64,000 nt of DNA from Candidatus Latescibacterota bacterium (GCA_965242865.1 CBDETK010000013.1:3552001-3616000), one strand, 5' to 3'; positions 34,053 through 52,845 are shown, counted from the first letter of the stretch. The notes: generated by a model from the sequence alone, not told the origin. Translations and numbers: made by a program.

Positions 34053-34163
34053 CTGGCGTCCTCCATCCACCCTGTAAGGTAGGAATCCCGGCGGCCTCCG
34101 GCAACGCGCCCGCTTGACCGGCGCGGGCAGTCGCTTACCTTGAAGCGCAGAAAGGAGACTAAC

Positions 34164-35087: not shown

Positions 35088-35112
35088 TCCCTAAATGAAA
35101 GAGGAGAGTCCC

Positions 35113-35973: not shown

Positions 35974-36042
35974 CAGCGGTTGAGCCGCCGAGCTTCCACA
36001 CTTTACTTTGATTGCTTTCTGATATTCCCGACGCGTCTAGTG

Positions 36043-36063
36043 TCGAGGACGGGACGCCCTCGA
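36043..36063. repeat. REP-like palindrome, family B (GAGGGCGGGACGCCCTCGA)
   Basis: tcgaggacgggacgccctcga; same family at 60421-60476 and 63316-63350. Confidence 0.55.
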
Positions 36064-36115
36064 TACTTGGAAGGCGGGTCGCCGGGGTCGTATAGAAGGG
36101 GGAACAGACTAATCA

Positions 36116-37516
36116 CTATCCTCGATCTACGAACTGTTTACCGTCTATCTCGTATTGCTTGAGCTTCCGCTGTAGATTTCTGCGGGTCAATTGTATCGCC
36201 GTCGCGGTCTGGCTTACGTTGCCGTTGCCCCTTTCTAAGGCGCGGCGGATAAAGATCCGCTCAAACTGCTCGCGCGCCTCGTGGAAGTGCTGCTGCGGAA
36301 TATCGTAGTGCGAATCCTCGTCGCCATAGAGCTGTGCCGCGTCACCGGCCAAGGATGGGGGCAGATATTCGAGTTTGATCGCGTCGCCTTTGGCCACGGT
36401 CATCGCCCGCATGATCGCGTTTTCCAATTCGCGCACATTGCCGGGCCAGTTGTGTTCCTCCAAACGCTGCATGGCCTCGCTGGTAAACCCCTCAATGCGC
36501 TTGCCCAGCACTCCGTTGTAGCGGTTGACGAAGAAGGCGCACAAGAGCGGCAGGTCGCTCGTGCGATCCCGCAGCGGCGGGATTTCAATGGTCAGCGCGT
36601 TGATGCGGAAGTAGAGATCTTCGCGGAAAAGGCCCTCCGCAATGCGGGCTTCGAGGTTTTGGTGGGTGGCGGTGATCAGGCGCACATCCACTTGCCGGGT
36701 CTGTGTCGATCCCACCGGCTCAAACTCCCCTTCTTGGAGCACGCGCAAGAGCCGAATCTGCATATTGGTTTCGAGGTCGCCGATCTCGTCGAGGAGCAAG
36801 GTGCCGCCGTCGGCCTCGGCAAAACGACCGGCGCGGCCGCGGACCGCTCCGGTAAAGGCTCCCTTGACGTGGCCGAAAAGTTCGCTCTCCAGCACGCCCG
36901 GCGACAAGGCGGCGCAGTTGCAGCGCACAAAAGGCTTGTCCGCCCGGTCGCTGGTGCTGTGGATGGCGTTGGCAACCAGCTCCTTGCCGGTCCCGCTCTC
37001 GCCCCGGAGCAGGACAGTGACCGGCGTGGGTGCCACGTCCCGGATGAGCTGGTAGAGCTGTCTCATGCTCTCGCTCCGGCCCACTAAATTGCCGAACTCG
37101 CCCCGTTGCCCCTGCCGCAGGGCCTCGTTTTCGCGGCGCAGCACCTGCAACTCCAAGATGCGATCGAGATGCGCCAGCACTTCCCCGATGTCAAAGGGCT
37201 TGGACAGATAGCCGTAGGCCCCGAGCTTGACGGCTTTTACCGCGCTTTCCACGTCGGCATAGGCCGTCAAGATGACGACCTCTTCGCGGCGTTGCTGCTT
37301 TTTGAAGATCTCCAAGAAGCCGAGCCCATCCATGCCCGGCATCCTCAAATCGAGGAGGATGAGATCGAATTCCTCGTTGTTCAGTAGCGTTAGGGCCGCC
37401 TTTCCACTGACGCAGGTAGCAACCTCCAAGCCCTCGCGGCGCAACAGAATGGCCGATAAATCCAGCAAGTCCCGCTCGTCGTCTATCATGAGTATCCTGC
37501 CCTTGCGTTTGCCCAT
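36116..37516 (-). CDS. NtrC/AtoC-family sigma-54-dependent response regulator
   Basis: REC (DD, DLRMP, KP), GESGTGKE, ESELFGH, GAFTGA, WPGNVREL, Fis-type HTH. Confidence 0.95.
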   Translation of the reverse strand: MGKRKGRILMIDDERDLLDLSAILLRREGLEVATCVSGKAALTLLNNEEFDLILLDLRMPGMDGLGFLEIFKKQQRREEVVILTAYADVESAVKAVKLGAYGYLSKPFDIGEVLAHLDRILELQVLRRENEALRQGQRGEFGNLVGRSESMRQLYQLIRDVAPTPVTVLLRGESGTGKELVANAIHSTSDRADKPFVRCNCAALSPGVLESELFGHVKGAFTGAVRGRAGRFAEADGGTLLLDEIGDLETNMQIRLLRVLQEGEFEPVGSTQTRQVDVRLITATHQNLEARIAEGLFREDLYFRINALTIEIPPLRDRTSDLPLLCAFFVNRYNGVLGKRIEGFTSEAMQRLEEHNWPGNVRELENAIMRAMTVAKGDAIKLEYLPPSLAGDAAQLYGDEDSHYDIPQQHFHEAREQFERIFIRRALERGNGNVSQTATAIQLTRRNLQRKLKQYEIDGKQFVDRG

Positions 37517-37517
37517 G

Positions 37518-39662
37518 TCAATCGTTCCTCTCAGAGTTCGTGGTTAGTGGCCGCTGGCCGCTGCTTATTGTCGTAGGTAGATGGAGCGAAAAGTGCGTAC
37601 CTCGACCGGGGACGCTTTCGACCTCAATCCGACCGCCGATTTCCCGTATTTGCCGGTGGGCGATGGCCAACCCCAGTCCGGTGCCCTGCCCCGGCGGTTT
37701 GGTCGAGTAAAACGGCTCAAATATGTGCCGGATATGCGCTTGGGGAATGCCCGTACCGGTATCGTCGATCCCCACCACCACCCAATCATCCCGCTGCTCG
37801 GCCAAAATTAGCAGCTTGCCGCCCTCGGGCATGGCCGCAAAGGCATTGCTGATCAGGTTGAGAAACACATCCTTGAGCATGTCCCGATTCACCCACACTT
37901 GCGGCACCTCGTGCAGCCGGGCCTCAATGGCTATGCCGAGGTGATCGGCGTGTTTTTGTTCGAGGTCGATCAGTTGCCGTAGGATGCCCGCGGGGTCAAC
38001 CCACTCCTGCGTCTGCTGGGCGGGTCGGGCAAAGTCGAGCAGATTGACTACTCGTTCGTCGATCCGGCCGATAGCCGCGCCGAGGGGCCGGAGCGCTTGG
38101 TCCCGCCCCTCCACTTCCGCCGGGACAATCTGCGCCAACAACTCGTAGGCGTGCCGGATGATCGCCAGCGGGTTCTTGATCTCGTGCGCCACGCCCGCGG
38201 CCATCTCGCCGAGGGAGGCCAGCTTCTCGGACTGGACGTAGTGGAGCTCCAGCAGCTTGTGCTGGGTCTGGTCGTCGATCACCAGCAATAGATGCCCCGG
38301 CAAGGCCCCGGCCAAGTCCACGACCTTCAGGTTCCAAAACCGGGTGCCGCCTTGGGGGGACTTGATCTCCAAGTTGTCGATCGGCCGCGCCTTGGGGTTG
38401 CTTTTGATCCAGTCCCAAAGCTGCTGGCCCTCGGCCGTGTGTTCCCAAGAGCCAGCCTCGTCTTCGCCAAAGAGTTGGTGCCAAGCCTTGTTCACCCGCA
38501 CGGTTCGCCACGGCTGGGCCACCACCGCGAGGGCGAGGGGATTGTCCTCAATCAGCCGGTCGTTGAAGTTCAACTCGGCTTCCAGCGCGGCCTTGCGGGT
38601 TTCGAGGGCTTGGTTCATTTCGGTGAACGCCTGCCCCAGCTCCCACAGTTCGTCCTTTATGGCCGGCAGCTCCAGTGCAAACTCCTCGCCGGCCTGCGCG
38701 GCTCGCACCGCCTGCATCAGGCGATTGATGGGCCGAGTGATCGACCGCAGCAACAACAAGCCTAGCAAAATGGCCCCCGCGACCGAGGCGACCGTGATCC
38801 AGTTGGCACGGTGCTGCATCATCGCCACCAGCCCGAACGCCTCGCGTGCCTCCTGCTGTACCACCACGGTCCAGCCCCAGTCCGCAATGTACGCAAAGCC
38901 CGCTACCCACTCGCGTCCGTCTATGTCGCGCCATTGCCGGGTGCCATTGCCGCTTAGACGGGGCACGAATTGCGGATGGGTGGCGTCGAGATACACGTCT
39001 TGGCGCGCGGGAAAGGCGATATAGTGGCCCCGTGCGTCCAACAGCACCCCGCGGCCGGTATCGCCCAGCCGAATTTGGTCCACCTGCTGCCAGATTTCGT
39101 ACAGGGCAAACCGGGTGATCAAGGCACCGACCACTTGGTCGCCCTCTTTGACCGCCAAGCCAATAAACAGGCTCGGTTGCCCTTCGCGCTGGACCACTTC
39201 CGAAGCGTAGAATTTCTCTCGCTTCACCTGCGCCCACAGCACCCGGGCATGGGGCAGGTAATTGGGCGGCAGCCGATCGCCGCGCTGGAGTGGGGCTTGG
39301 ACATCGAGCACATTGGTGGCTTGGATTGTGCCGGCCGTATCCACGAAGCAGAGTTCGGCTACCGCGCCCAATTCCAACCCGACCTGACTCAACAGGCTCT
39401 GCCGACGCCAAGGGTCGCGGACCACATTCATGCTCTGGGCCAGCACCTTGAGGCTGGCGATGGGCTGGTCGAGAAAATGGTGGACCTCCTTGGCCGCCCG
39501 CTGGGCCACCTGCTGATGGGTGTTGAGCACGGCCTGCTCTAGCGCACTGCGCGCCGTGTACACGAGTACGCCGGCCACCAACAGCACGGGCACCAGCCCG
39601 ACGATCAGGTGATTGCCCAGCAGCCGCACCCACAGGCGATGTATGTTGGCGATGAATGTCAT
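37518..39662 (-). CDS. Sensor histidine kinase (Cache-HAMP-PAS-HisKA-HATPase)
   Basis: Two TMs around a periplasmic Cache-like domain; AHEIKNPL; NLISNA; DTGTGI; FEPFYSTK; GTGLGL. Confidence 0.93.
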   Translation of the reverse strand: MTFIANIHRLWVRLLGNHLIVGLVPVLLVAGVLVYTARSALEQAVLNTHQQVAQRAAKEVHHFLDQPIASLKVLAQSMNVVRDPWRRQSLLSQVGLELGAVAELCFVDTAGTIQATNVLDVQAPLQRGDRLPPNYLPHARVLWAQVKREKFYASEVVQREGQPSLFIGLAVKEGDQVVGALITRFALYEIWQQVDQIRLGDTGRGVLLDARGHYIAFPARQDVYLDATHPQFVPRLSGNGTRQWRDIDGREWVAGFAYIADWGWTVVVQQEAREAFGLVAMMQHRANWITVASVAGAILLGLLLLRSITRPINRLMQAVRAAQAGEEFALELPAIKDELWELGQAFTEMNQALETRKAALEAELNFNDRLIEDNPLALAVVAQPWRTVRVNKAWHQLFGEDEAGSWEHTAEGQQLWDWIKSNPKARPIDNLEIKSPQGGTRFWNLKVVDLAGALPGHLLLVIDDQTQHKLLELHYVQSEKLASLGEMAAGVAHEIKNPLAIIRHAYELLAQIVPAEVEGRDQALRPLGAAIGRIDERVVNLLDFARPAQQTQEWVDPAGILRQLIDLEQKHADHLGIAIEARLHEVPQVWVNRDMLKDVFLNLISNAFAAMPEGGKLLILAEQRDDWVVVGIDDTGTGIPQAHIRHIFEPFYSTKPPGQGTGLGLAIAHRQIREIGGRIEVESVPGRGTHFSLHLPTTISSGQRPLTTNSERND

Positions 39663-39670
39663 CCTTTTAT

Positions 39671-39729
39671 GATTTCAAAGGGCAACCACGTCATTGATTC
39701 CAAAGGGCAACCACGAGGGTTGCCCCTAC
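39671..39729 (-). repeat. REP-like element, family A (GTAGGGGCAACCCTCGTGGTTGCCC) with partial 25-bp duplication
   Basis: GTAG + GGGCAACC/GGTTGCCC hairpin overlapping the SBP stop codon; aaagggcaaccacg occurs twice. Confidence 0.7.
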
Positions 39730-41306
39730 GGTGCCCAGTACCATGCGGGCAAACTGCGGAAAATTCCCATTGGCACGACCGATTCCAGGCCCCGCAGCGG
39801 CTGCCGCACCGCGTACATGACCGGCTCTCGACAAATAAAAATGGTGGGATGATCCGTTAGCAGATGGCGATGGATACTCCGGTAGATCGCTATGGACGCG
39901 GCCTCGTCGTAGGCCACCCGACCGGCTTCGATCAGCCGATCCACTTCGGCATTGACATAACCCGACTCATTGCGGGCGTCCTGCGAATGCCATTCAGACG
40001 CGGCTACATCGGGATCGAGGACATTGTATCCTCTCTCCAATACCATGTCGAACCGCGACCTCACGGAAGAGAGCACCTGCAGCGGCGCGGTCTGCATGAG
40101 CAGGTGAATCCCTACTTCTTCCAAGTCTTTCCGCAACTGGGCCGCGATGTCGTGCCGATGCGGCATCTCCTTGGCCATGACCAAGGTCAATTCCAACGCA
40201 TCCCGCTCGCGCAACCCATCCCCGGCCCCATCCACCCAGCCGGCCGCTTGCAGGATGGCCCGGGCGCGCCGCTGGTCTTTGACCGGCGTGGGCACCTGCG
40301 GATCGCCATAGACCGAGCCGGGCGGAAAAGGCCCGGCCACAAAGACCGAGTCCGCCGTTGCTTCCCCGCCGAGTAGGTGCCATATCGCTCGGCGATCAAT
40401 CGCGTAATGGAGCACCGCTCGCACGCGCGGATCGCTCAACACCGATTCCGAGCGACAGTTTAATTTTAAGGCTGCATAGGCCGGACTCGCCCCTTTGAGC
40501 ACCTTGAAGGCCGAGTTGTCGGCGATGCTTTTCAGATCGTCGAGCGCGGCGGACGGGGCCACATCGCTTTCGCCGCGCATAAACGCGGCCCATGCGTAGC
40601 GCGTGTCTGGGTAATCGCCGCGCACCTCCACGGTGTCTAGGTACGGACGCCCCCCGTAATAGCCCTCAAAGGCTACCAACCGCACGTGATCCTCGCCGAC
40701 CCAATTGGCAAAGCGGAACGGCCCCGACCCGATGGGATGCCGATTGAAGGGCAACTCGTCTAGCCCATAGCCGGCCGCCAACTGCGGCTCGACGAGGTGC
40801 TTGGGCAGAATGTGCAACCGCAAGGGCACTAGTGCCGACCCTTGCGGTGGAGCGGCGTAGTGCAGCCGCACAATGTCGTGGCTGAGTGCCTCAATCCGAT
40901 CAAAGCGCAAATCCTCCCCGCGCCGCTGCTCCTTCATCAACTGGAGCGTAAAGACCACGTCCGCAGCCGTCACTGGCCGACCATCGTGGAACTGGGCATC
41001 AGATCGCAGCAAGATGTCCCAAAACTTTTTCCTAGGGCTGAATGGCCAAGCTACGGCCAGGGCCGGGGTAAGCTGACCGGTGGGCTCTTCCGTGAATAGG
41101 CGTTCAAAGAGCAGGTCCAATACCTCCGTGCTCACGGTGTGAGAGGCCGTGAGTGGATTGATCGGCTCCATGCCCCCGGTTGCCCCAATTCGCACCCGGC
41201 CCCCATAGAAAGGCCCATCGCGGTCAGGCGCGCTGCACCCGAGGACGAGCAAAAACGCCCATATCGCGGTTGTGCCTGTGCTTGGGGGCCGGGCTGGCCG
41301 GACCAT
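39726..41306 (-). CDS. Orphan family-5 (oligopeptide) ABC substrate-binding lipoprotein
   Basis: Lipobox VLGC; FHDGRPVTAADVVFT; PIGSGPF; no permease or ATPase genes adjacent. Confidence 0.9.
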   Translation of the reverse strand: MVRPARPPSTGTTAIWAFLLVLGCSAPDRDGPFYGGRVRIGATGGMEPINPLTASHTVSTEVLDLLFERLFTEEPTGQLTPALAVAWPFSPRKKFWDILLRSDAQFHDGRPVTAADVVFTLQLMKEQRRGEDLRFDRIEALSHDIVRLHYAAPPQGSALVPLRLHILPKHLVEPQLAAGYGLDELPFNRHPIGSGPFRFANWVGEDHVRLVAFEGYYGGRPYLDTVEVRGDYPDTRYAWAAFMRGESDVAPSAALDDLKSIADNSAFKVLKGASPAYAALKLNCRSESVLSDPRVRAVLHYAIDRRAIWHLLGGEATADSVFVAGPFPPGSVYGDPQVPTPVKDQRRARAILQAAGWVDGAGDGLRERDALELTLVMAKEMPHRHDIAAQLRKDLEEVGIHLLMQTAPLQVLSSVRSRFDMVLERGYNVLDPDVAASEWHSQDARNESGYVNAEVDRLIEAGRVAYDEAASIAIYRSIHRHLLTDHPTIFICREPVMYAVRQPLRGLESVVPMGIFRSLPAWYWAP

Positions 41307-41425
41307 TATGCCTCATTTCTGTGACGAGATATACTGAATACCGTCAGATAATAAGGCGCGTCGCTTTAGGACAAAAGCACCGTCTATAAGGCATGGCCCT
41401 TGCTACACGACACTACCCGGCCTTT

Positions 41426-43345
41426 TTAAGCATCTTCGGCCACCGGCCGGCTCTCCGCGGCAAAATGGTTGACAACGACATCAACCATTCGCTGCTGCCC
41501 CTCCACGGCAACAATCGCCACGGCCGGCAAGCCGAACGAAGCCTCCAAGCGCTCCAAGTGCGCCTTTATCTCATCCTCGCTCATTTGGCGAGAAGAAACC
41601 CAAGTTTTGCCATAGACCGAGCGAGCGTGTTTCTCCTTGTCGCTCATCGCCAGTAATATAACCGGGGCTTTGCCCAATATGCGGATGCCATCAAGGGTGT
41701 CTTGGATATACGCATCCGAATCCGTGCTGTTGACCACCAGAATGCAGGCGTCCGGTTTGGTCCCCAACAAGAAGTGGATCGACGGCTCGGTATGGGAGTT
41801 GTGGTTGGCGACATCGTAGGGTATGGTGCCCGACTGGCAGCCGACCATCATGATATCCGGTTTTTTCGCCGCGTTAATCTCGCGCATCTTGTGGTCTAGG
41901 TACGGGCCGTAGTATTGCAACGGCAGGTCTCTGGGCACGGCGTAGCCCATGGGAAAGGAAAAATCCATCCCGAACAGGGCCGAATGATGCTCCGTACCAA
42001 GCTGACCAACCTTGTATCCTTGCTCAATCAGCTTCTGCCGCAATGCGAGTTGCAAGGTGAACTTGCCCTGTTGAGAGCTCGTGCCAAACACCCCGACCAC
42101 CGGCACATCCACGGCGCGCTCGGAACCTTGGGCCGCAAGGCACCGTTGGACATCGGCAAAATCGAAATCCGGGAACTCCAAGTGCAACCCCTTGCTCCGC
42201 GCCAAGTCGTACAGGTCGGCGTAGGTCTCTAAATCAACCGCTAAGAAGCTGAACACGTTGAGCCCCCGTTCCAACGCCGTTTGTATCGCCTCGCGCAGCA
42301 AGTCCTTTTTGCCCAACCGGGATAGCTGATCTACGTACCCCAACACGAGGGTATCGGCCCCTTCGAGAGCGTCCCCGAGTTTGGGGACAATGCGCACACC
42401 TAACGGTTCGACGCCAATGGCCGCGCCAGCGTCCTTGCCCACCAAGCCTTTGCCGACCGGGTCGGCAATGCCAGCGATGGTGAAACGCAAATGCTTCGCG
42501 TGGCGCACCAGCGCATGCATTTCCTTGTTGTACGGATACAGGGCCGCCCGGCCAATCCACTCGTAGCTGGGAAAACCCGGCCGCTCGACCGTGACCGGCC
42601 CAGGATCCTCCGACTCTAAGGCGTTTGCCGCCAAAATCTCCCGCACTGGAGTCAGCCCTGCTTTGGGAAAGTGCTGGCGGATCAGGGCGACAATCGCCGA
42701 TACGTGGGGCGCGGCAAAACTGGTTCCGCCGGTGATCGTCTCCCCTCCGTTTAGCCAGCACAGACGCTGCGGATCGCCCCGGGCCACGCACTCAATGGCC
42801 TGCCCGGGTCGGTAGTAGTACCCGTAGCGGTCGTAGATTTTTCCCCAAGTGACGCCTATTACGTCGGCCAACTCGGCTGGGTAGCTCTCCAAGCCCTCGT
42901 TGTGCTGGGAACCGACCAAGATCAGATTGGCTGCAACGGCCTTGCGGCAGATCTCGGCCAAGGGCCTCTTAGACGCGGGGTCAATCGTCCCCAAGCTGAG
43001 ATTGACCACGTCCATGCCTTCTTCTATGGCCCAAGCGATGGCCGCGACCAGCGACTGTCCATCCGTAGTCAGCGACTCGTCGAAAATGCGGATCCCGTAG
43101 AGTTCGGCTTCCGGGGCTAGTTTGCGGATAATGCCGGCGCAGGCCGTACCGTGACCGGCCTGGTCGGAAAAGTCTCCCTCGCGTTGGATACCGCCGTCGG
43201 CAAGCGCACACAACCCAACTCCGCCGGCAATAGTGCCGATCTTGGGGTGATTGGGTTCAATACCGCTATCGACTACCGCGACCTTGACTCCGCGTCCGGT
43301 CAATCGGGTAAAGTCGAGCGTCTGCAACTGCTCATTGGTTCTCAT
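41426..43345 (-). CDS. S8 subtilase fused to DUF1611-like (Rossmann + P-loop) domain
   Basis: Catalytic triad motifs VVDSG, HGT, GTSFAAP; no signal peptide; C-terminal GVFGTSSQQGKFT. Confidence 0.85.
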   Translation of the reverse strand: MRTNEQLQTLDFTRLTGRGVKVAVVDSGIEPNHPKIGTIAGGVGLCALADGGIQREGDFSDQAGHGTACAGIIRKLAPEAELYGIRIFDESLTTDGQSLVAAIAWAIEEGMDVVNLSLGTIDPASKRPLAEICRKAVAANLILVGSQHNEGLESYPAELADVIGVTWGKIYDRYGYYYRPGQAIECVARGDPQRLCWLNGGETITGGTSFAAPHVSAIVALIRQHFPKAGLTPVREILAANALESEDPGPVTVERPGFPSYEWIGRAALYPYNKEMHALVRHAKHLRFTIAGIADPVGKGLVGKDAGAAIGVEPLGVRIVPKLGDALEGADTLVLGYVDQLSRLGKKDLLREAIQTALERGLNVFSFLAVDLETYADLYDLARSKGLHLEFPDFDFADVQRCLAAQGSERAVDVPVVGVFGTSSQQGKFTLQLALRQKLIEQGYKVGQLGTEHHSALFGMDFSFPMGYAVPRDLPLQYYGPYLDHKMREINAAKKPDIMMVGCQSGTIPYDVANHNSHTEPSIHFLLGTKPDACILVVNSTDSDAYIQDTLDGIRILGKAPVILLAMSDKEKHARSVYGKTWVSSRQMSEDEIKAHLERLEASFGLPAVAIVAVEGQQRMVDVVVNHFAAESRPVAEDA

Positions 43346-43360
43346 CTGGGTCGTCCTTTT

Positions 43361-45091
43361 TTAAGTATCCGCAAGCTGAGTTTTGAACAACTCCCAGTAG
43401 TGGCCTTTTTTCTCGATCAATTCGGCATGGGTGCCTTTCTCGACAATTTTTCCCTCGTCCATGCAGACGATCTCATCAACTTCTCGGATGGCACTGAGCC
43501 GGTGGCTAACGATGATGACCGTCTTGTCGTCGGCTTGGCCCTTGAGCCGGCGCAACAGCTTCTCCTCGCTCTCCGAGTCAAGGGCTGAGGTCGCCTCGTC
43601 CAGCACTACAATCTCAGGGTTTTTCAGCATCGCCCTCGCTAGTGCTATCCGCTGTTTCTGCCCACCCGACAGGTTGGCTTTAGAGTCGCATACCGTCGCC
43701 AAGGAGTCTTCGGGCGCGTGGATATCCGCGCCTTTGATCTCAAGTTCCGCCGCCGTGCGTTCAACCTCTTCTTTAGAACTATCCAACCGACCATAGCGTA
43801 TGTTTTCGAGCACCGAATCGCGAAAGAGCGGTGCTTCTTGCGACACCAAGCCGATGCGGTCCCGGTACTTGCCCAGACCAAAGGCCCTGCACGGCGCGTC
43901 GTCTATGGCGATCTCGCCTTTTTGCGGTTGGTAAAAACGACACAACAGATCGACGACCGTGCTTTTGCCGCAACCGCTCGCGCCGACGAGCGCGTACGTC
44001 TTGCCCTTTTCAATCTCTAAGTCAAAATGGCTGAGTACGGGGTGACCGTTGTAGGCAAACTCCACATCTTTGAACGCTATCTTCTCTTTGAACGAGAAGG
44101 GTTTGGCCTGCTTTGGCTCTACGTCAACCTCGGCTGGTACATCCATGAATTCCACAATCCGCCGCAGGGAAACCGACGCCCGTACGCAGTCTATGTACAG
44201 TTGGTTCAGGCTCTCTAAGGGGGCGAAGATGCGCATGAAGTACTGGAAAAAGGCGATGAGTGCCCCCAAACCGATCTCGCCCTGCATGACTTGATGCCCT
44301 CCCCAACCGAGGATGACGACAGGGGCCAAGGACATGATAAAGGACGCGATGGAACCAGCGGAAAGATTCAACGCGGTGCTGTGCATCTCCAGCTCGAACA
44401 ACTTCCCTTGTCGGCTGCCCAATTTGTCGCTCTCGTGCCTGTACGTGTTGTACGACTGGACGAGTTTGATGTTGTCGAATCGCTCAATAAAAAAACCTAG
44501 TATATCCGAAGTCGTGCGCTGGGTTGTCTCGGCCACCTTGCCTATTTTCGGCTGGAAGTACTTGAGATTCACGATGAAGCAGGGCACGAGCAGGCTCAGG
44601 CCGAGGAAGAGGGGAGCGTCCAGCCATATCAGCACCGCCCCCAAGCTGACCAGCGTCAGCACGCTGTTGACGAGCCTCAGTACGCTGGAGGTGAGCGTTT
44701 TCTGGACGACCTGCACATCGTTGTTGAGCCGATGGGCAATATCCCCGGTCTTGTTGCGTTTGAAGAAATTGAGCGGCAGGCGCAACAGGTGGCTGAACAA
44801 CTCGCTCCGCATCTCGAACACGACGCGATTGCCGACCCAGAGGTAGAGATAATTGGCGATGAAAGCACTGATGATGTTCAGGGCCATCATACCGAATAGG
44901 GTAGCCAGCAGGATGCCCAGCAGATAGTAATCTTCGTCGGGCAGCACTTCGTCAATGAGGATCATCAGGATATAGGGGAAGGCGAGTGAACTGGCTATCG
45001 CTAAAACCATGAAGACGAATACGATTGAACTTTGCCACCAGTACGGTTTGATGTACCGGGCGAAGCGCATTGCAAATTCTTTGAATACCAT
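43361..45091 (-). CDS. ABC exporter (TMD + NBD, no C39 domain)
   Basis: GASGCGKST, LSGGQKQR, LDEATSALD, SHRL. Confidence 0.95.
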   Translation of the reverse strand: MVFKEFAMRFARYIKPYWWQSSIVFVFMVLAIASSLAFPYILMILIDEVLPDEDYYLLGILLATLFGMMALNIISAFIANYLYLWVGNRVVFEMRSELFSHLLRLPLNFFKRNKTGDIAHRLNNDVQVVQKTLTSSVLRLVNSVLTLVSLGAVLIWLDAPLFLGLSLLVPCFIVNLKYFQPKIGKVAETTQRTTSDILGFFIERFDNIKLVQSYNTYRHESDKLGSRQGKLFELEMHSTALNLSAGSIASFIMSLAPVVILGWGGHQVMQGEIGLGALIAFFQYFMRIFAPLESLNQLYIDCVRASVSLRRIVEFMDVPAEVDVEPKQAKPFSFKEKIAFKDVEFAYNGHPVLSHFDLEIEKGKTYALVGASGCGKSTVVDLLCRFYQPQKGEIAIDDAPCRAFGLGKYRDRIGLVSQEAPLFRDSVLENIRYGRLDSSKEEVERTAAELEIKGADIHAPEDSLATVCDSKANLSGGQKQRIALARAMLKNPEIVVLDEATSALDSESEEKLLRRLKGQADDKTVIIVSHRLSAIREVDEIVCMDEGKIVEKGTHAELIEKKGHYWELFKTQLADT

Positions 45092-45118
45092 TTTGCCCTC
45101 CCTTGCGCTAGGGGCCGA

Positions 45119-45463
45119 TCAGTAGAGTAGGTGCTTGACCGAACTCAAATCGGCCTTGTTGGTGATGACATCGTAGTACTTCACGCCTTTGAAGTTGAAA
45201 GCGAGCGGCTCGACCAAGTCGAACCAAGGCTTCAACTCGTTGTAGAAGATGACCGAAAGATGCGGCTTCTCCTGCACGGGAATATGGACGTTGACGACCG
45301 TGTTGTTCTCATCAATTACAAACACGGCTGGGGTCGGTTCGCCAAAGGGCGTCTCGTTGAAGTATCCGGTCGTGTCCGACGCCACCGGAAACGCAATCTG
45401 AAAAGTCCGCACATAGTCCGAGAACTTCCGCTTGCTCATCCTCGCGATGCAGTAGATGGGCAT
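45119..45463 (-). CDS. C-terminal half of an AhpC/TSA thioredoxin-like fold (possibly truncated)
   Basis: FPVASD...TPAVFVIDEN; no CxxC; no clear RBS. Confidence 0.5.
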   Translation of the reverse strand: MPIYCIARMSKRKFSDYVRTFQIAFPVASDTTGYFNETPFGEPTPAVFVIDENNTVVNVHIPVQEKPHLSVIFYNELKPWFDLVEPLAFNFKGVKYYDVITNKADLSSVKHLLY

Positions 45464-45568
45464 CGGCTGATGACGGCAACCTGCGCGACGCGTACGATGC
45501 TGTGGGGTGCTGTCGATGGGAACGGTGGACGATGCGGGAAACTAATCTGCGAGTTGCGGAACCGCCGT

Positions 45569-46216
45569 TTACGAAGTGAAGTACCGATCCAGCCAGTCTC
45601 GGATACCCTGCTCCGTCGCCTCTTCGTCGTCTTGGTCGCTATAGTGCCAGTTGAGCACCTCAAAGGCGTCATCTACTACAAACCAGACCGGCACGGACGA
45701 CCGGGCGTCCGACTGGAACAGCAGGGCTTCGAGTTGCTGCTCGGCCACGAAGGTGAAGGCGAAGGGCACGATACCCACCTTGTTCTTGATGGCGATCTGC
45801 TGCTTGATGTGTTCGTTGGCGTCGCCTACGACCAACAGCAATTTGCCGTGAGAGACGCCCTGCTGCGCCATGGCCTGCTTCCACTGGTCGAGTTGGGCAA
45901 ACAGGCAGGCTCCACAGGTCCGGCTCGTCGATACAACTACGACAAAAGGCTGGCCGTCCTCGGCGGCCGACTCGTCGAACTGGGCGAAGCGGCCCAAGTC
46001 CACCGATTCGAGCAGCTTGCGGTGTAGTTTGTTCTTGAGGGCGGCGTTGACCTCGTAGTTCCACTGGACGGTTTCCAAGTGTTTTAGCCGCTCGTTGAGG
46101 GTCTCCAACTCGTCGAGTCTGTCGGTATTGTCTCGGTGCAGGGCCAAGGCGACTGAGCCGAGGCCGAGAGACAACAGTAGCAGGGCTTTGGTTAGCTGAG
46201 TGGCATTCATGGTCAT
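45569..46216 (-). CDS. Membrane-anchored thioredoxin-like (CxxC) protein
   Basis: N-terminal hydrophobic anchor, TCGAC, VPVWFVVD; AAGGAG RBS. Confidence 0.7.
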   Translation of the reverse strand: MTMNATQLTKALLLLSLGLGSVALALHRDNTDRLDELETLNERLKHLETVQWNYEVNAALKNKLHRKLLESVDLGRFAQFDESAAEDGQPFVVVVSTSRTCGACLFAQLDQWKQAMAQQGVSHGKLLLVVGDANEHIKQQIAIKNKVGIVPFAFTFVAEQQLEALLFQSDARSSVPVWFVVDDAFEVLNWHYSDQDDEEATEQGIRDWLDRYFTS

Positions 46217-46228
46217 GGTCTCCTTATT

Positions 46229-47404
46229 CTACTGGCCGCCCCGCGAGCGGCTGAACGCACTCTTGCCAGCTCCCGTGCGATCGTTGATTCGATAGATGGC
46301 TACGTATGGATCGCTCGTCTCGCCGGTCGCTTCGTCGAGGGCATCCTCAACCACAAAATACAGTTCCATACCGTCAACCGTCAGCAGTCTATGGCTGGCG
46401 GGTAATCTGATGCCGTCGGCAACCGAATGGCCGTCCTTGTAAAAGAGATTTAGATAGTATTCCGGCTTACCGTTAACCACACGCCGGTATTGTGTAAGCA
46501 CCAGCAGGTCGGGACCGAATTCATAGAGTCGGGAACGGACAATGTGCTCGGCAAACCATTCGTTGTGCCGAGCGGTCCAATTGACCGGATCCAAGTCGGC
46601 GGGAAAAGGCTTGATCCGGTCCCGGTGCTTAGACTGGTACTCGCTAAACCAAGTCCGTTCCAACTGGCCCTGCTCGCTGTATTGGTGGATCTCGTAGGTC
46701 GTCGGGTAGATGAAGTAGAAGCCGCCTCCCCGCTTGGGAGTGAGCACGGTGTTATGATAGCGATTCAACGCCCGTCCGGTTCGTTTGTCTTCGACCGGAT
46801 ACAGGCCGGCAACTTTATTGAGGTTGTCGTCGAAGCGGAACAGCGCGTATTGGCCTTCCGCTCGCACCCCGGCCGAGCCGGCGTCAATGACGTCCACTTG
46901 TGCGCCATAAATATGGCCACCCGTGGTGAGCACAATATGGTCAATGAACTCAGGGTTGGGATCTGGCACCTGCCGCTTGAATTTATATGAATCGCCAGAG
47001 AAGAAGAGATATTTCCTACTTTCTCCCAAGCTGTAGAAATAGAAGTCTCCGTTAGGGGCCAACCGTGGTCTTAATGGATTGAAGTATTCGTCCTCGGCTC
47101 CTCCACGCACTCCAATTTGCCGCAGGTAATGGCCCTCGGCATCGGTCTGAAAAATCATATTCTGGATACCATCTAAAACAATGAGGTTGCCCTTAGCATC
47201 AACGAAGACGTAGCTAATCTGGCCCACAATGACATGCTCAGGCATTTGCAAATGGATGTCCCGATCCTTGACGAATGCCTCGTCAAACGTAAGGTCGGCT
47301 GCCGGTGGGGTGATTTCTATCCGGCCAGCAGGCTGGTCATCACCGCATCCGACCAGAGGCACCATAGTACCGACGATTGCGATGAACTGTATCCGATTTT
47401 TCAT
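46229..47404 (-). CDS. 6-bladed beta-propeller lipoprotein
   Basis: Lipobox LVGC; IGVRGGAEDEYFNP NHL-like blade; YEIHQYS. Confidence 0.75.
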   Translation of the reverse strand: MKNRIQFIAIVGTMVPLVGCGDDQPAGRIEITPPAADLTFDEAFVKDRDIHLQMPEHVIVGQISYVFVDAKGNLIVLDGIQNMIFQTDAEGHYLRQIGVRGGAEDEYFNPLRPRLAPNGDFYFYSLGESRKYLFFSGDSYKFKRQVPDPNPEFIDHIVLTTGGHIYGAQVDVIDAGSAGVRAEGQYALFRFDDNLNKVAGLYPVEDKRTGRALNRYHNTVLTPKRGGGFYFIYPTTYEIHQYSEQGQLERTWFSEYQSKHRDRIKPFPADLDPVNWTARHNEWFAEHIVRSRLYEFGPDLLVLTQYRRVVNGKPEYYLNLFYKDGHSVADGIRLPASHRLLTVDGMELYFVVEDALDEATGETSDPYVAIYRINDRTGAGKSAFSRSRGGQ

Positions 47405-47476
47405 AACATTTTCCTTGTGGATGGTTGGTGTTGAGCCACTATGTATTCATAAGGCTCAGTACCCGAAGATTCAGAG

Positions 47477-47512
47477 GAGTGGACCGGGGATCACTTTGAC
47501 CCCGGTCCACTC
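47477..47512 (-). other. Strong stem-loop downstream of peptide ORFs, module 1 (no U-tract)
   Basis: gagtggaccgggg-atcactttga-ccccggtccactc; near-identical copy at 52215-52250. Confidence 0.75.
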
Positions 47513-47598
47513 GCTCGTCAACGGCTCGGTGGTTGTTTAGCTACCCCTCCAGTGGCGATTCTATCGAATCAAGCAGGGCGGAAGGGCCTGCTGACTGA

Positions 47599-47742
47599 CT
47601 AGCCGCAGCAGCAGCAGAGGCGGCCCTCTCCAGAGCAATCAGCTTTCGGAGGACTGCTTTCGCAGATGGAGAGGGCGAATTCCAGCTGCGCCTCGACGGC
47701 CTGGCCGTAGGTGGCGCGTTGGGGTTTGTGCAGAGCGATCAT
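47599..47742 (-). CDS. Putative RiPP precursor, 47 aa: MIALHKPQRATYGQAVEAQLEFALSICESSPPKADCSGEGRLCCCCG
   Basis: AAGGAG RBS before ATG 47742; leader-like N-terminus shared with paralogues; six Cys in the C-terminal part. Confidence 0.8.
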   Translation of the reverse strand: MIALHKPQRATYGQAVEAQLEFALSICESSPPKADCSGEGRLCCCCG

Positions 47743-47938: not shown

Positions 47939-47971
47939 GGCTTCAGACCTCCTCGACTGTGAACGCTAGCT

Positions 47972-48052
47972 TTACCAGCGCGCCCCGAAAAAGGGCCACT
48001 GCACAGACCGCCGAAAGCGGCGGCGGTAACGGCGGTTGATAACGCGGTTCAT
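47972..48052 (-). CDS. Arg/aromatic-rich 26-aa peptide MNRVINRRYRRRFRRSVQWPFFGARW
   Basis: AAGAGGAGG RBS; first ORF after the sigma-54 promoter; translated by hand. Confidence 0.6.
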   Translation of the reverse strand: MNRVINRRYRRRFRRSVQWPFFGARW

Positions 48053-48149: not shown

Positions 48150-48166
48150 AGCATATTCCGTGCCAA
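48150..48166 (-). promoter_or_regulatory. Sigma-54 -24/-12 promoter (module 1)
   Basis: TTGGCACGGAATATGCT, GG-N10-GC. Confidence 0.85.
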
Positions 48167-48256
48167 ACTGATTCTTGATAAAAGATAAACTACTAATAAA
48201 CATATACTTATAAAAAATTAAGGCACTTCATGCCAAACGCTGAATCGCGCTTCAAT

Positions 48257-48355
48257 TGCACCCTTTCGACGCACCTAACCCCCCATTTGCTCTCTATTTC
48301 TATTTTTTACAACAGTTTAGAGCAAGTGCGTTAAAAAGGACGCAGTGCGTCAAGG
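48257..48355. promoter_or_regulatory. Candidate bEBP enhancer sites (module 1)
   Basis: tgcaccctttcgacgca (48257) and tgcgttaaaaaggacgca (48327), 70 bp apart; conserved in module 2. Confidence 0.7.
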
Positions 48356-48603: not shown

Positions 48604-49644
48604 TTATCTTAGAGATGAGAGATGCGAAAGCACCTCACCCAAGAGCGCGAACTCATCCTTTCTCAGGCGGCATAGTTCATCTTGGGCAAACGTTCGACCT
48701 TCCTTGGCCTTTTTGCCTCTCATCTGGTTTCTCAACACAACCATGCGGATCTGATTTGCGCGGCTGGCGATATCCGAGTATCTCCGGGCAAAACCGACCT
48801 CTTCGGGCAGGATCCCTTGGCCCTCCATGTACTCCAGCCGAGCGACCATGCACTTTTTGTGCTCCCAGAAAATACGCAAGGAGATAAGCAGCTCGTCCTC
48901 GGTCGCCTCCGGCTCATCAAGCAGCCCTGCGAGGAACTGGTAAGTATCCATCCCCCACAGGTCGCCGCGGTTTCTCGGTTCGGCGAGTATCCGCAACCGC
49001 GTTGAGGTGTTGCGAGACAGGTAGAGGTCGGTCAATTCCTCCCGGGCCTGCACTAAGTCAAAAGCACACTCAGCAGACGACCGGTAGTAGTAGAGCACAA
49101 CTTGAGGATTCTCAACCTTGTCCTGTAGCCAATCAGGGCCACCCTCCGGCCTAAACGCCGTGGATAACGCCCGCTCAAACTCGGCGAACCCCACGGCGAA
49201 ACGGCCGTAGCTCCCATCGCGGCCGTAGCCCGACGCAGTAAAAGTGCCTTGTCGCCAGTCAAAGCCGCTCAAAAGCAGTTCGTGAAGAAAATGAACCCGT
49301 TGGTAATACACGCCCTGTGGAATGTAAAAGTAGTCCACATCCAACTGCACGTAGTAATCCCTTTCGAGGCACTCCAAGACGAATTTTGTGACTTCATCCG
49401 GCTTGTCCCCGGCCAGTCGCCGGTCAACCCTATTGGATTCGAGCAAAGGGCAGGTGGAGAACTCTCGATAAAACGGATGGAGGTAGAAATTCAGCCCCCG
49501 TCCCTCAAACTGTCGCAACTGGATATAGTGACAATAGAACCACGGCCGGTACGCTGTGTCGCGGGCGAGGATCGAAAGCGGGTATAGATGGTGCATATAC
49601 CCGGTGATGGGCGGTTTGCCGATGGGCAAACACTTTTTCGTCAC
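48604..49644 (-). CDS. BtrH-like (papain-fold) putative acyltransferase/peptide-modifying protein
   Basis: YYVQLDVDYFYIP...HFLHELLLSGFD pattern typical of BtrH_N/C39-like folds; GTGA overlap with the GT4 gene. Confidence 0.55.
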   Translation of the reverse strand: MTKKCLPIGKPPITGYMHHLYPLSILARDTAYRPWFYCHYIQLRQFEGRGLNFYLHPFYREFSTCPLLESNRVDRRLAGDKPDEVTKFVLECLERDYYVQLDVDYFYIPQGVYYQRVHFLHELLLSGFDWRQGTFTASGYGRDGSYGRFAVGFAEFERALSTAFRPEGGPDWLQDKVENPQVVLYYYRSSAECAFDLVQAREELTDLYLSRNTSTRLRILAEPRNRGDLWGMDTYQFLAGLLDEPEATEDELLISLRIFWEHKKCMVARLEYMEGQGILPEEVGFARRYSDIASRANQIRMVVLRNQMRGKKAKEGRTFAQDELCRLRKDEFALLGEVLSHLSSLR

Positions 49645-50900
49645 GACGCGATCCTCGCTTTCGCGTCCGTGGTTCCTTGGAGGAGACGCATTAGCCGCCG
49701 TGCGGAAGCAGACCAGCTAAATCGAGGTCGATCCGGGGGGATTTGGGGCGGAAAACCAACCGTATAGGCTTGAGCCAATAGCCTCACCAGCGAATCAGCA
49801 TCGTCGAGTCCGTAATACCGCCCCTGCTTGCCTACCACCTCGTTCATTATCGGAATGTCGGGAACAATGACTTCCGTCCCGCAGGCCAACGCCTCCACCG
49901 CTGGCAGGCAAAAGCCCTCATCTACCGACGAGATCACCAGTGCTGCGGCACTGTGGTATAGAGCAGCCAGTTCGTCGTCGTCAACCCGACCGAGGAACCG
50001 GACTTGCTCCCCCAAGGCATTGGCTGCGACGGACCGTTCCAATTCGCTTTGGTACGCCCCGTAATCCCCCACCATCACCAACGGAGGACACAGCCCCCGC
50101 TCGGCCTTGAGCTCGGCCAACACCGAAAAGAGCCAGTCCAACCTTTTGCGCTTGTGTGCTAGCCCTACAAAGAGGAAGAACGGGGATTTTAGGCCGTGCT
50201 GGACCAGTACTCGGGCGATGGTTTCGCCATCCCGCTGGCCGCTGAAAATGCGCTCGTCAGCCGCCCCCGACACCACATCAATCTTCTCGTTGGAGATGCC
50301 GAGTATCTGTACAATGTCTTGCTTGACCGTATTGGAAACAGTGATCACCCCTTCGCATTGGGTCGCTAAACGTCTGTTCATAGCCCAGAAATAGTGGTGG
50401 AACACTTCTTTGCCTTCGGGCACATCCCCAAATCCAACTGTGTTGTGTCCAAGACGCTCACACGCCATCCTCATTTGCTCAAACTCCGACCGGCCGAATT
50501 TGGCTTGGAACGCCGCATCCGTATAGGTCGATAGATCGGGGTGCTTGAGCCGGATTAGGTCGTGGATAGTGAATATGTAGGGAACGGGCAGCAACGGATC
50601 AACGATATAATGGATTGAGTAGTACAAATTGACCCCTTCCCGGATAAGCCAATTCCGCAACCACGACGAATCGCGCACAAATCCACCGTCGTCCGGCACT
50701 TCCACGAAGCGGAGCCGACGAGTCAAACGCGGATTTTTCAGATCGGCTGCGATTTCACCACTGCGTCCCGGCCAAGCGATCACGGTCAGGCGGTAATCTC
50801 CATCGATTTCGTCGGCATCCAGCGCGTGCAACAGGGAAGTGCCATAGCGATAGATGCCGCTATAGTGGGTCGTGCGTAGGTCAAAGGCTAAATGGGTCAT
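49641..50900 (-). CDS. GT4 (GT-B) glycosyltransferase
   Basis: TIHDLI, ITVS, FVG, EGFCLPAVEALACG. Confidence 0.92.
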   Translation of the reverse strand: MTHLAFDLRTTHYSGIYRYGTSLLHALDADEIDGDYRLTVIAWPGRSGEIAADLKNPRLTRRLRFVEVPDDGGFVRDSSWLRNWLIREGVNLYYSIHYIVDPLLPVPYIFTIHDLIRLKHPDLSTYTDAAFQAKFGRSEFEQMRMACERLGHNTVGFGDVPEGKEVFHHYFWAMNRRLATQCEGVITVSNTVKQDIVQILGISNEKIDVVSGAADERIFSGQRDGETIARVLVQHGLKSPFFLFVGLAHKRKRLDWLFSVLAELKAERGLCPPLVMVGDYGAYQSELERSVAANALGEQVRFLGRVDDDELAALYHSAAALVISSVDEGFCLPAVEALACGTEVIVPDIPIMNEVVGKQGRYYGLDDADSLVRLLAQAYTVGFPPQIPPDRPRFSWSASARRLMRLLQGTTDAKARIAS

Positions 50901-50954
50901 GGTATCTCACTCCTTAGCAACGGGAATAGGGAAGCCTAGCAAGTTCTCATGTTG

Positions 50955-51392
50955 TTAGCGGTCGGCTGGAATTTCCCGCTCCTTCTGCACCAACAGCGTT
51001 GCAGCACCCCCAGCCAACAACAAACCGCGCAACAGTGCCCAACCCAGCGAAGCACCCTCGTCGCCACCAAAACAACCGCACGTCACCTCGTTGCCGCGGT
51101 ACATATTGATGCCGAGCGCCGCACTAAAAACCACCAGTAGCCCCAAGATGACCAAGGCGTTACTGCGCGACCAGATGCCCAAGAGCAGAAGGCCGCCGGC
51201 AATCAGTTCAACCCAGACGACCGACAGCGCAAACGGCGCAGCCCAATCCACCGGGAGCATATCAAAGGCCGCGACCGTCTCGACGAAAGACGGTATTTGC
51301 ACGAGCTTTGCACTCCCCGCCCAAACAAAGACACCGCCCAACACCAGCCGGACCGTCAGAGCCAGATAGGGCCTGAGTGCAAGTCTGTCCAT
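50955..51392 (-). CDS. MauE/DoxX-family membrane protein
   Basis: RLVLGGVFVWAGSAK, VELIAG, CGCFG; TAATG coupling to the rhodanese gene. Confidence 0.88.
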   Translation of the reverse strand: MDRLALRPYLALTVRLVLGGVFVWAGSAKLVQIPSFVETVAAFDMLPVDWAAPFALSVVWVELIAGGLLLLGIWSRSNALVILGLLVVFSAALGINMYRGNEVTCGCFGGDEGASLGWALLRGLLLAGGAATLLVQKEREIPADR

Positions 51393-51868
51393 TAGAAAGG
51401 ACCCTCCGATTCCACGGGATAACCCGCTTCTTCCCATTGGGGAAATCCGCCCGCGAAGACGTAGATCTGCGTAAAATCCATCTCCGTTGCGAGCTTTTGC
51501 GCCAGTTTGGAGCCCAAGTTACACGTCGTCCCTGAACAGTAAACGACCAGCGCGGTATCCTTGGACAAGTCGGCCAATTCCGCGCCAAAAGCGGCGAGAA
51601 TCTCCGACGGTGGGACATTAAGAGCCCCGGGCACATGCCCCAACTGGTAGGGCCAAGAAGACCGAGCGTCCACGAACACAGCCGCCCTTTGGTCCAAGAG
51701 CCGTTTGGCCGTTGCTAAATCAATCAGATGCACACCATTTTCGGGCCGCTGGACCTCTTCTATTGCCAAGCTATGCAGTCCGCCGCTGGAGACGCCGATC
51801 GCCACTACCAGCAATGCCTTTCCAACAATTCGCTTCATCACAGCGAATCCCCTTTCTCCGGTAGTCAA
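51392..51868 (-). CDS. Exported rhodanese-like domain protein
   Basis: VDARS, GHVPGALNVP, VYCSGTTC, GGFPQW. Confidence 0.88.
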   Translation of the reverse strand: MTTGERGFAVMKRIVGKALLVVAIGVSSGGLHSLAIEEVQRPENGVHLIDLATAKRLLDQRAAVFVDARSSWPYQLGHVPGALNVPPSEILAAFGAELADLSKDTALVVYCSGTTCNLGSKLAQKLATEMDFTQIYVFAGGFPQWEEAGYPVESEGPF

Positions 51869-52137
51869 ACCCCTATTGGCGGTACTTTGCCGCGCACGAA
51901 TTCGGCGATGGAACGCACCGACACAAACCGTTCCGCCCGCAGTTCCTCGTCTTCCACATCAATGGCAAAGTGCGTTTCCAAGGCCATGACGAGCTGTAGC
52001 ATGACTATTGAATCAGCCCCCAGACCATCACCCAACAGCAACTCGTCGTCCGCGATAGCCTCCGGTTCGATCTCCAGTTCAAGAGCTTGGACGATAACCT
52101 GTTTGATCTGTGCTTCGAGTTTCATCTCGATGTCCAT
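51865..52137 (-). CDS. Stand-alone acyl carrier protein
   Basis: GLGADSIVML phosphopantetheine Ser motif; acidic, 90 aa. Confidence 0.9.
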   Translation of the reverse strand: MDIEMKLEAQIKQVIVQALELEIEPEAIADDELLLGDGLGADSIVMLQLVMALETHFAIDVEDEELRAERFVSVRSIAEFVRGKVPPIGV

Positions 52138-52214
52138 GATCGCCTATTCTTCCGTTTGCGGCGCACGAAACATGCTTCGTGAGGGCATGCTTTAGAAATA
52201 CCCGAAGATCAGCG

Positions 52215-52565: not shown

Positions 52566-52582
52566 AGCACATTCCGTGCCAA
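52566..52582 (-). promoter_or_regulatory. Sigma-54 -24/-12 promoter (module 2)
   Basis: TTGGCACGGAATGTGCT, GG-N10-GC. Confidence 0.85.
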
Positions 52583-52670
52583 ACGGAGCCGCAAAGCCGT
52601 AATTGATTGTTATACAAAGGGTTATAGAAAATGGGGGCCTTTCGTCCAAGTCGCCGAGTCGCGCTTCCAT

Positions 52671-52766
52671 TGCACCCTTTTGACGCACCTAACGACCTGT
52701 TTTATTTGTATCTCACGTCTTTACAATGGCTTAGAGCAAGTGCGTCAAAAGAGCCGCAGTGCGCTA
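52671..52766. promoter_or_regulatory. Candidate bEBP enhancer sites (module 2)
   Basis: tgcaccctttTgacgca (52671) and tgcgtcaaaagagccgca (52741), 70 bp apart. Confidence 0.7.
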
Positions 52767-52845
52767 AAAGTGACCGCGGGGGCCGTTGCGTGAGTTGCTC
52801 TCAATCGTTACGCTCAGGTTTATCCTTCGTTTGAGGAGTCGCGCC

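Follow-up and report, generated by a model that had tools for sequence, protein, structure and literature searches.

What does a peptide-type binding protein do when it is encoded beside a sensor kinase and a sigma-54 activator with no transporter genes nearby, and which genes might such a set of proteins control? The question is raised by a 64,000-nucleotide stretch of one strand of a Candidatus Latescibacterota genome (GCA_965242865.1 CBDETK010000013.1:3552001-3616000; this whole stretch is called the window, and positions are counted from its first letter), in which a trio of genes at 36116..41306 encodes a solute-binding lipoprotein, a Cache sensor histidine kinase and a response regulator with a GAFTGA motif. 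An earlier note on this DNA proposed that the trio senses a peptide exported from the same locus, which would activate its own synthesis in a quorum-sensing-like loop. In the reading that we favour, the trio is probably the dedicated binding-protein/kinase/sigma-54 activator switch of a genus-specific island of peptide and lipoprotein genes. The three open reading frames (ORFs) lie exactly where the note had placed them, on the minus strand, and its family assignments hold by Pfam matches and motifs. The features of the trio are the following:

39726..41306, minus strand: family-5 (cluster C) solute-binding lipoprotein of 526 amino acids (aa), candidate periplasmic co-sensor (PF00496, lipobox, AlphaFold2 (AF2) model and Foldseek)
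37518..39662, minus strand: sensor histidine kinase of 714 aa, with a first transmembrane segment (TM1), a periplasmic dCache domain (about residues 37-286), a second transmembrane segment (TM2), HAMP, a PAS-like linker, HisKA and HATPase_c (Pfam, H-box, ortholog alignment)
36116..37516, minus strand: NtrC-type response regulator/sigma-54 activator of 466 aa, with a receiver domain (REC), an AAA+ domain with GAFTGA, and HTH_8 (Pfam, motifs)
41343..41381, minus strand: conserved element GTGCTTTTGTC...TTATTATCTGA, a candidate for the trio's own promoter, in the 119-nt gap 5' of the binding-protein gene

The binding protein matches SBP_bac_5 (PF00496) with 195.6 bits against a gathering cut-off of 32.4, and its N-terminus MVRPARPPSTGTTAIWAFLLVLGC consists of a signal peptide and the lipobox LVLGC with Cys24, of which LGC is kept in the ortholog consensus. 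The kinase, with the H-box AHEIKNPL, matches dCache_1 (54.4 bits, cut-off 45), HisKA (34 bits) and HATPase_c (90.7 bits), and its HAMP match of 23.2 bits is slightly short of the Pfam cut-off of 25. The regulator matches Response_reg (PF00072, 99.4 bits), Sigma54_activat (PF00158, 232.3 bits), HTH_8 (PF02954, 38.1 bits) and AAA_lid_14, and its translation holds KGAFTGA together with the Walker A and Walker B motifs GESGTGKE and LLLDEIG. None of the named binding-protein equivalogs (NikA, Opp4A, CntA, GsiB, DppA, OppA) reached its NCBIfam cut-off, the top one being NikA with 111.2 bits against 393, and the named activator equivalogs AtoC (439 bits, cut-off 714), NtrC (422, cut-off 559), ZraR (395, cut-off 760) and LuxO (350.8, cut-off 800) likewise stayed below theirs. 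By these profile scores, the trio proteins belong to broad families (SBP_bac_5, dCache kinases and NtrC-type activators) and to no named equivalog.

The binding-protein gene is co-oriented with, and directly upstream of, the kinase and regulator genes, with intergenic gaps of 63 nt and 1 nt. The description of the binding protein as an orphan, made in the earlier note, is right for its neighbourhood: no Opp-type permease/ATPase or BPD_transp_1 domain was found among the 49 larger ORFs scanned over the window, and the closest PF00528 match lies about 84 kb off. The whole 6.0-Mb genome has 12 PF00496 and 38 PF00528 matches, and a distant permease could be shared. The comparison set consisted of 31 genomes of the genus, including this one, and 137 genomes of the phylum outside the genus. 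Orthologs of the binding protein, with 75-82% identity, are present in 10 of the former and in none of the latter, and the trio-bearing island is accessory: within one Latescibacterota genus, roughly one species in three has it. In all ten genomes the genes for binding protein, kinase and regulator are contiguous, with a gap of 12-63 nt ahead of the kinase, and the genes upstream are shuffled. The element GTGCTTTTGTC...TTATTATCTGA is conserved in 9 of the 10 loci irrespective of the gene that precedes it, so the three genes behave as one unit, and its conservation suggests a basal promoter of the trio. A sigma-70 consensus scan reported no site at 41343..41381; over 35900-53000, the sigma-70 and terminator scan yielded 4 sites resembling promoters where 6.7 were expected and 23 resembling terminators where 18 were expected, which is uninformative.

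The promoters that the trio would serve lie upstream of it, in two modules designated P1 and P2, each with an upstream activating sequence (UAS):

48151..48165, minus strand: P1 sigma-54 -24/-12 element, TGGCACGGAATATGC (pattern and conservation)
52567..52581, minus strand: P2 sigma-54 -24/-12 element, TGGCACGGAATGTGC (pattern and conservation)
48241..48354, minus strand: P1 UAS with repeated GACGCA/TGCGTC half-sites (GACGCACTGCGTC, TTTTAACGCAC, GGTGCGTCGAAAGGGTGCAAT), followed by an A/T-rich stretch like a site for integration host factor (IHF)
52655..52768, minus strand: P2 UAS, a paralog of the P1 UAS
47481..47508, minus strand: conserved stable hairpin 3' of the peptide gene, possibly an attenuator or processing site; second copy at 52219-52246

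P1 and P2 are paralogous modules, each comprising a UAS of about 115 bp, an A/T-rich stretch that resembles an IHF site, a -24/-12 element, a conserved 5' leader and, farther down, the hairpin (-41.2 kcal/mol, z -4.68). An Rfam search of 35000-53500 with E up to 0.1 gave no match. In the window, the loose sigma-54 pattern shows no enrichment (8 matches, 6.06 expected, with 8 reached in 30 of 100 shuffles), so the reality of P1 and P2 rests on conservation. The promoter consensus TGGCACG-N4-xTGC, with canonical GG/GC spacing, occurs in 30 copies in the fetched loci, which stem from 9 of the 10 trio-bearing genomes (none was found in the 8 kb fetched from the tenth, G014). All copies point in the same direction as the trio and lie up to about 35 kb upstream of it, and a UAS is recognised at 29 of the 30, the remaining copy being at the end of a fetched stretch. 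The UAS half-sites fit the distance of about 80-200 bp upstream of the sigma-54 element that is typical of activator sites, and the genome contains one rpoN gene. P1, with its conserved UAS, stands ahead of the peptide precursor gene, in agreement with the earlier claim that sigma-54 promoters drive the peptide genes.

The trio most likely regulates the island's sigma-54 promoters, and hence the peptide genes, because the UAS is unique to the locus, co-occurs with the binding-protein ortholog, and shares the window with a single PF00158 gene, that of the trio regulator. The UAS, leader and hairpin blocks each occur at two places in the entire genome, namely in the P1 and P2 modules. When the UAS was scored in the 31 genus genomes with a 17-mer and up to one mismatch, 10 genomes had both UAS and ortholog, 20 had neither, and none had the ortholog without the UAS. 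The single genome with a UAS and no ortholog (G008) is an assembly of 340 contigs in which the regulator and the C-terminus of the kinase stand at the end of a contig; the flank downstream is the same. In four relatives (G020, G007, G002 and G042), a UAS promoter directly heads an operon of the genes for a TlpA-like protein, ATP-binding cassette (ABC) exporter, S8/DUF1611 protein, binding protein, kinase and regulator, which places the sensor genes there under the same promoter type.

In the mechanism that we propose, a periplasmic ligand would load the binding protein, which would then dock on the dCache domain of the kinase, as CBP does on ChiS and LuxP on LuxQ. The kinase would phosphorylate the activator, which would in turn recognise the island UAS by its GACGCA/TGCGTC half-sites, some 90-200 bp upstream and with an A/T-rich bend site in between, and fire the island's sigma-54 promoters (two here, one to six in relatives). 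These promoters would drive genes for Cys-rich leader-peptide precursors, DUF5128 propeller lipoproteins, thiol-redox and maturation proteins and exporters. They would drive the trio as well, through read-through in this genome and without it in the four relatives, giving positive feedback.

Co-sensing by a binding protein and a kinase, which the earlier note had cited as established in other systems, is indeed described in the review PMC8050422 for CBP-ChiS (SBP_bac_5 with a dCache-like sensor), LuxP-LuxQ, TorT-TorS and AioX-AioS. The trio shares the hallmark of these pairs, a binding-protein gene beside a kinase gene and detached from transporter genes, and is best read as working like the binding-protein-assisted two-component sensors, such as LuxP-LuxQ-LuxO or CBP-ChiS. 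In the LuxP-LuxQ-(LuxU)-LuxO system of Vibrio, as in the trio, a periplasmic binding protein is encoded beside a membrane kinase as its co-sensor (PMC8050422), and the output regulator LuxO is, as here, a sigma-54 activator. However, LuxP is a Peripla_BP_4 protein that binds autoinducer-2 (AI-2), LuxQ is a hybrid kinase that acts via LuxU, and the Lux targets are Qrr small RNAs, whereas the targets here would be peptide and lipoprotein operons. The CBP-ChiS system of Vibrio cholerae is similar in its protein families, with an SBP_bac_5 protein acting on a kinase whose periplasmic domain is dCache-like (PMC8050422, Table 1). It differs in that CBP, a binder of chitin oligosaccharides, also supplies an ABC importer whose genes lie alongside, whereas no permease is encoded here, and in that ChiS itself binds DNA without a sigma-54 activator, whereas the trio has a separate NtrC-type regulator. 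AioX-AioS-AioR is likewise a binding protein/kinase/regulator set, whose binding-protein gene is tied to signalling and not to transporter genes (PMC8050422, Table 1). By contrast with the binding protein here, AioX is a phosphonate-binding-family protein for As(III), and the target of AioXSR is an oxidase operon. AioR is sigma-54 dependent. The island also resembles the bacteriocin three-component and lantibiotic (e.g. nisin) autoinduction systems of Firmicutes, in which the two-component system is encoded in the peptide locus itself, along with an ABC exporter and precursors of conserved leader and variable core, and feedback is positive. In those systems, however, the kinase binds the peptide directly at a monoderm membrane and the promoters are of sigma-70 type, whereas the island here interposes a periplasmic binding protein and sigma-54, with the peptide as a putative ligand. 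A literature search by titles and openings of abstracts found no description of such a system, and nothing on DUF1611 with peptides made on the ribosome and modified after translation.

What the binding protein might bind was approached through its structure. An AF2 model built on a 96-row alignment has a pLDDT of 91.4 and a bilobed cluster-C fold, and its top Foldseek matches are AppA (1xoc), CtaP, NikZ, NikA and DppA (probability 1.00, template-modelling score 0.67-0.78). The nearest solved relative in both sequence and fold is AppA of Bacillus subtilis (PDB 1xoc; profile E 1.6e-69, Foldseek E 1.9e-43), a nonapeptide/oligopeptide binder, although the identity is only about 25% and AppA serves the App ABC importer. 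The ligand is most likely oligopeptide-like, and we would give perhaps one chance in three to its being a peptide of the own island or of a neighbour. A complex prediction for binding protein residues 25-526 and kinase residues 37-286, each with its own alignment, returned scores of 0.34, 0.01 and 0.01, which weigh neither in favour of a contact nor against it. Searches of genome contigs with the binding protein gave two orthologs and generic relatives of at most 36% identity, and a metagenome search gave one relative of 25% identity; the kinase sensor domain retrieved 21 orthologous clusters (83-96% identity) and one relative of 46% identity.

Several points weigh against a dedicated, genus-specific switch. 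Any genes inherited together on one island would co-occur as UAS and trio do, and the genomes compared are close kin, so that the co-occurrence is no independent evidence of a regulatory link. The genome has 18 PF00158 matches, so that a different activator might act at P1 and P2. The dCache domain of the kinase could detect a ligand unaided. Among the structural matches, those after AppA include the nickel and metallophore binders NikZ and NikA, and the scores for all NCBIfam equivalogs are far short of their cut-offs. Finally, six remoter homologs of the binding protein exist, with 46-49% identity.

The peptides that the loop of the earlier note would require as ligands form a family with an invariant 19-residue leader and a hypervariable core of 23-29 residues, containing four conserved cysteines (two spaced, and a C-terminal CC pair). 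Twelve peptide ORFs, one of them degenerate, were found in seven genomes, with up to three different cores per genome; searching by profile added two genes in G008 and a partial one in G042. Of 1.84 billion representative proteins, only 11 matched the profile (E up to 0.001), which makes the family very small. Co-variation between the peptide core and the downstream propeller lipoprotein gave a Mantel Spearman r of 0.22, a value reached in 870 of 5000 permutations, with a usable propeller for 7 of the 12 peptide ORFs. Against this variable cargo stand sensor proteins of a different character. The ratio of nonsynonymous to synonymous substitution rates (dN/dS) is 0.21 for the binding protein, 0.16 for the periplasmic domain of the kinase, 0.17 for its cytoplasmic part and 0.13 for the regulator (45 pairs each), and 0.10 and 0.11 for the ABC exporter and the S8/DUF1611 protein (10 pairs each). 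The binding protein and the kinase sensor are therefore under purifying selection, and are not diversifying with the hypervariable peptide cores.

Under strict autoinduction, the binding protein would have as its ligand the mature Cys-rich peptide that the island exports, and self-switching would depend on density. The layout of the island is suggestive of this, since the peptide genes lie immediately behind UAS-bearing sigma-54 promoters, and the exporter and trio form one co-oriented string, which in four relatives is one operon behind a UAS promoter. The family of the binding protein also contains sequence-promiscuous oligopeptide binders, AppA being the nearest solved relative, and among the conserved proteins of the island it is the binding protein that evolves fastest, with a mean amino-acid identity of 0.81 (kinase 0.87, regulator 0.90, ABC exporter and S8/DUF1611 protein 0.92-0.93). 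However, the finding that the earlier note had named as refuting its loop, the trio without the peptide cluster in a relative, was made in part: G009, complete in a single contig, keeps the trio intact along with four UAS promoters and gave no match to the peptide profile. Its 30 kb fetched contain no match to the ABC exporter or the S8/DUF1611 protein, and genome-wide there is just a 58% S8/DUF1611 paralog 3.5 Mb away. G014 also lacks a peptide-profile match, though it is fragmented. In the agr and com systems, receptor and peptide co-diversify, unlike the pattern of hypervariable cores and conserved sensors here, and a core of about 25 residues would be too large to return to a diderm periplasm through general porins. 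Sequence-promiscuous backbone binding, as in Opp/App, would reconcile a conserved sensor with variable cores, and a lipoprotein that bound exported, disulfide-rich island peptides by their backbone would make the island a self-inducing, kin-eavesdropping system of peptide communication or competition in a diderm of an uncultured phylum; we regard this picture as doubtful, and strict autoinduction as unlikely. We know of no characterised precedent for peptide quorum sensing mediated by a periplasmic binding protein. Of the proposed loop, the regulatory link is thus well supported by the unique UAS and its co-occurrence with the trio, while the peptide as ligand is somewhat weakened by G009 and by the dN/dS values of 0.21 and 0.16.

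The persistence of trio and promoters in G009, where no peptide gene is detectable, would fit a trio that sensed an external cue unrelated to the island's product (foreign peptides, muropeptides, a metal-chelate or an oligosaccharide) and induced a competitive or defensive island, a possibility that we think rather unlikely. It would suit the conservation of the sensor proteins across species, and an invariant cargo that consists of propeller lipoproteins (with pumps of the resistance-nodulation-division (RND) type and their adaptors in relatives) and not of the peptide. Family-5 proteins also bind nickel-histidine, metallophores, chitobiose, opines and AI-2, according to the Foldseek matches and Table 1 of PMC8050422. 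On the other hand, AppA, the nearest solved relative, binds peptides, and the regulon contains no metal-uptake or sugar-catabolic gene at any locus inspected. A further alternative, which we consider decidedly improbable, is that the binding protein is not a co-sensor at all, but acts in transport with a distant permease, or in peptide handling or immunity, while the kinase senses through its own dCache pocket. Such domains commonly bind small ligands directly, several Opp-like operons in the genome and its PF00528 permeases could be shared, and MppA of E. coli uses OppBCDF. This is difficult to square with the invariant order of the three genes in all ten genomes, their short gap amid shuffled upstream genes, and the element ahead of the binding-protein gene that is kept whichever gene precedes it.

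If the regulatory link of the favoured reading is true, the island would offer a compact and fully defined sigma-54 switch, made up of a single sensor trio, a single UAS found nowhere else in the genome and a few promoters, governing lineage-specific hypervariable Cys-rich peptides in the Latescibacterota, a phylum without cultured models, and portable to E. coli for ligand finding and peptide expression. Should the ligand be a peptide, it would demonstrate diderm peptide signalling via a periplasmic binding protein; should it not be, the island would still be a clear case of a transporter-less family-5 binding protein recruited to signalling.

The genes behind the two promoters, in the order in which they follow P1 and P2, are the following:

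47972..48052, minus strand: first small ORF after P1, 26 aa, basic, MNRVINRRYRRRF..., with the start MNR[FV]I conserved in relatives
47599..47742, minus strand: precursor peptide, 47 aa, with the invariant leader MIALHKPQRATYGQAVEAQ and the variable Cys-rich core LEFALSICESSPPKADCSGEGRLCCCCG ending CCCCG
46229..47404, minus strand: DUF5128-type six-bladed beta-propeller lipoprotein, 391 aa (weak Pfam match; ESM Atlas 0.96 to DUF5128 clusters; tblastn)
45569..46216, minus strand: membrane-anchored protein, 215 aa, with CGAC (CxxC), thioredoxin-like by motif alone and without family match
45119..45463, minus strand: 114-aa ORF, C-terminal remnant of a TlpA/ResA-like CQPC protein of about 240 aa (weak ResA match, E 3.6e-4)
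43361..45091, minus strand: ABC exporter with fused transmembrane and ATPase domains, without a peptidase domain
41426..43345, minus strand: subtilase (S8)-DUF1611 fusion (Pfam; NCBIfam QhpE 139 bits and TIGR04066 122.8 bits, both under cut-off)
48604..52137, minus strand: P2 operon, overall
51868-52137, minus strand: P2 operon, acyl carrier protein-like
51392-51868, minus strand: P2 operon, rhodanese
50955-51437, minus strand: P2 operon, MauE/DoxX
49641-50900, minus strand: P2 operon, family GT4 glycosyltransferase
48604-49644, minus strand: P2 operon, 346-aa protein of no assigned family

All genes from P1 to the trio are co-oriented. A leader-like ORF sits between the 26-aa ORF and the precursor gene, the hairpin lies between the precursor and propeller genes, and the gap of 119 nt separates the S8/DUF1611 end of the P1 string from the trio. 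The TlpA-like CQPC protein is full-length in G020, G007, G002 and G042 (ORFs in L019, L020, L021 and L117); in the window, its N-terminal part and the corresponding UAS promoter are missing. The S8/DUF1611 protein has no signal peptide, which makes a cytoplasmic location likely, and it is likely to be a leader protease and maturation protein. Several of its paralogs (54-62%) occur elsewhere in genus genomes, with paralogs in G009, G004 and G014. Given these paralogs, the fusion, with its sub-threshold matches to QhpE and to the TIGR04066 'peptide maturation system' protein, may serve as a marker of further peptide clusters. The P2 module (52180-52510, minus strand) contains a small ORF, MTLHPLAEIRYRR..., a conserved mid-block and the hairpin but no precursor gene, as if the precursor had been deleted from a peptide module. 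Because of a 1-nt indel, the conservation of the P2 mid-block is one of DNA and not of protein.

The cargo varies among the relatives. Wherever enough sequence is available, a locus has propeller lipoproteins, in one to at least seven copies, and other UAS promoters drive RND pumps and adaptors. S8/DUF1611 orthologs are absent from G019, G009 and G043, which have 35-58% paralogs elsewhere or none. Since the S8/DUF1611 protein and the peptide are not found in every island, and propellers are found in all adequate loci, the island has an unvarying core made up of trio, UAS promoters and propeller lipoproteins. In G043 (L115-L116), at least seven DUF5128 propeller lipoprotein genes stand in tandem, and the precursor genes comprise two intact and one degenerate.

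At the regulator end of the island are NHL-repeat and aldo-keto reductase genes (35095-35973 and 34140-35087, both plus strand), which likewise flank it in G042 and G008, pointing to a conserved insertion site. A predicted AAA-ATPase with PD-(D/E)XK (PF09820, PF08011; 52786-54582, plus strand, in the window) recurs in L018-L024 and L119-L122; such genes are on the opposite strand, lie between promoter modules in all islands and are often fragmentary, and may be linked to island shuffling. The regulator of G020 (L019:1500-2873) has an ORF of only 332 codons from its start, though tblastn aligns residues 1-458, and an in-frame stop or an assembly error in this 77%-complete metagenome-assembled genome may account for it. 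A paralog of the dCache kinase (45% identity) is encoded with its own sigma-54 activator elsewhere in the genome (G000:C13:4551078-4555381; L033:9078-13381). Ahead of this pair stands, in place of a family-5 binding protein, a secreted 258-aa protein resembling a family-9 carbohydrate-binding module (CBM9), so the combination of a secreted accessory protein with a dCache kinase and an activator may be a layout that recurs. At 54951-58644 (minus strand), a ZnuA gene and a TonB-dependent receptor gene adjoin two genes for ABC-3 (Znu/Mnt-type) permeases, both of which carry a C-terminal fusion to a DtxR-type metal-binding/dimerisation domain, Fe_dep_repr_C.

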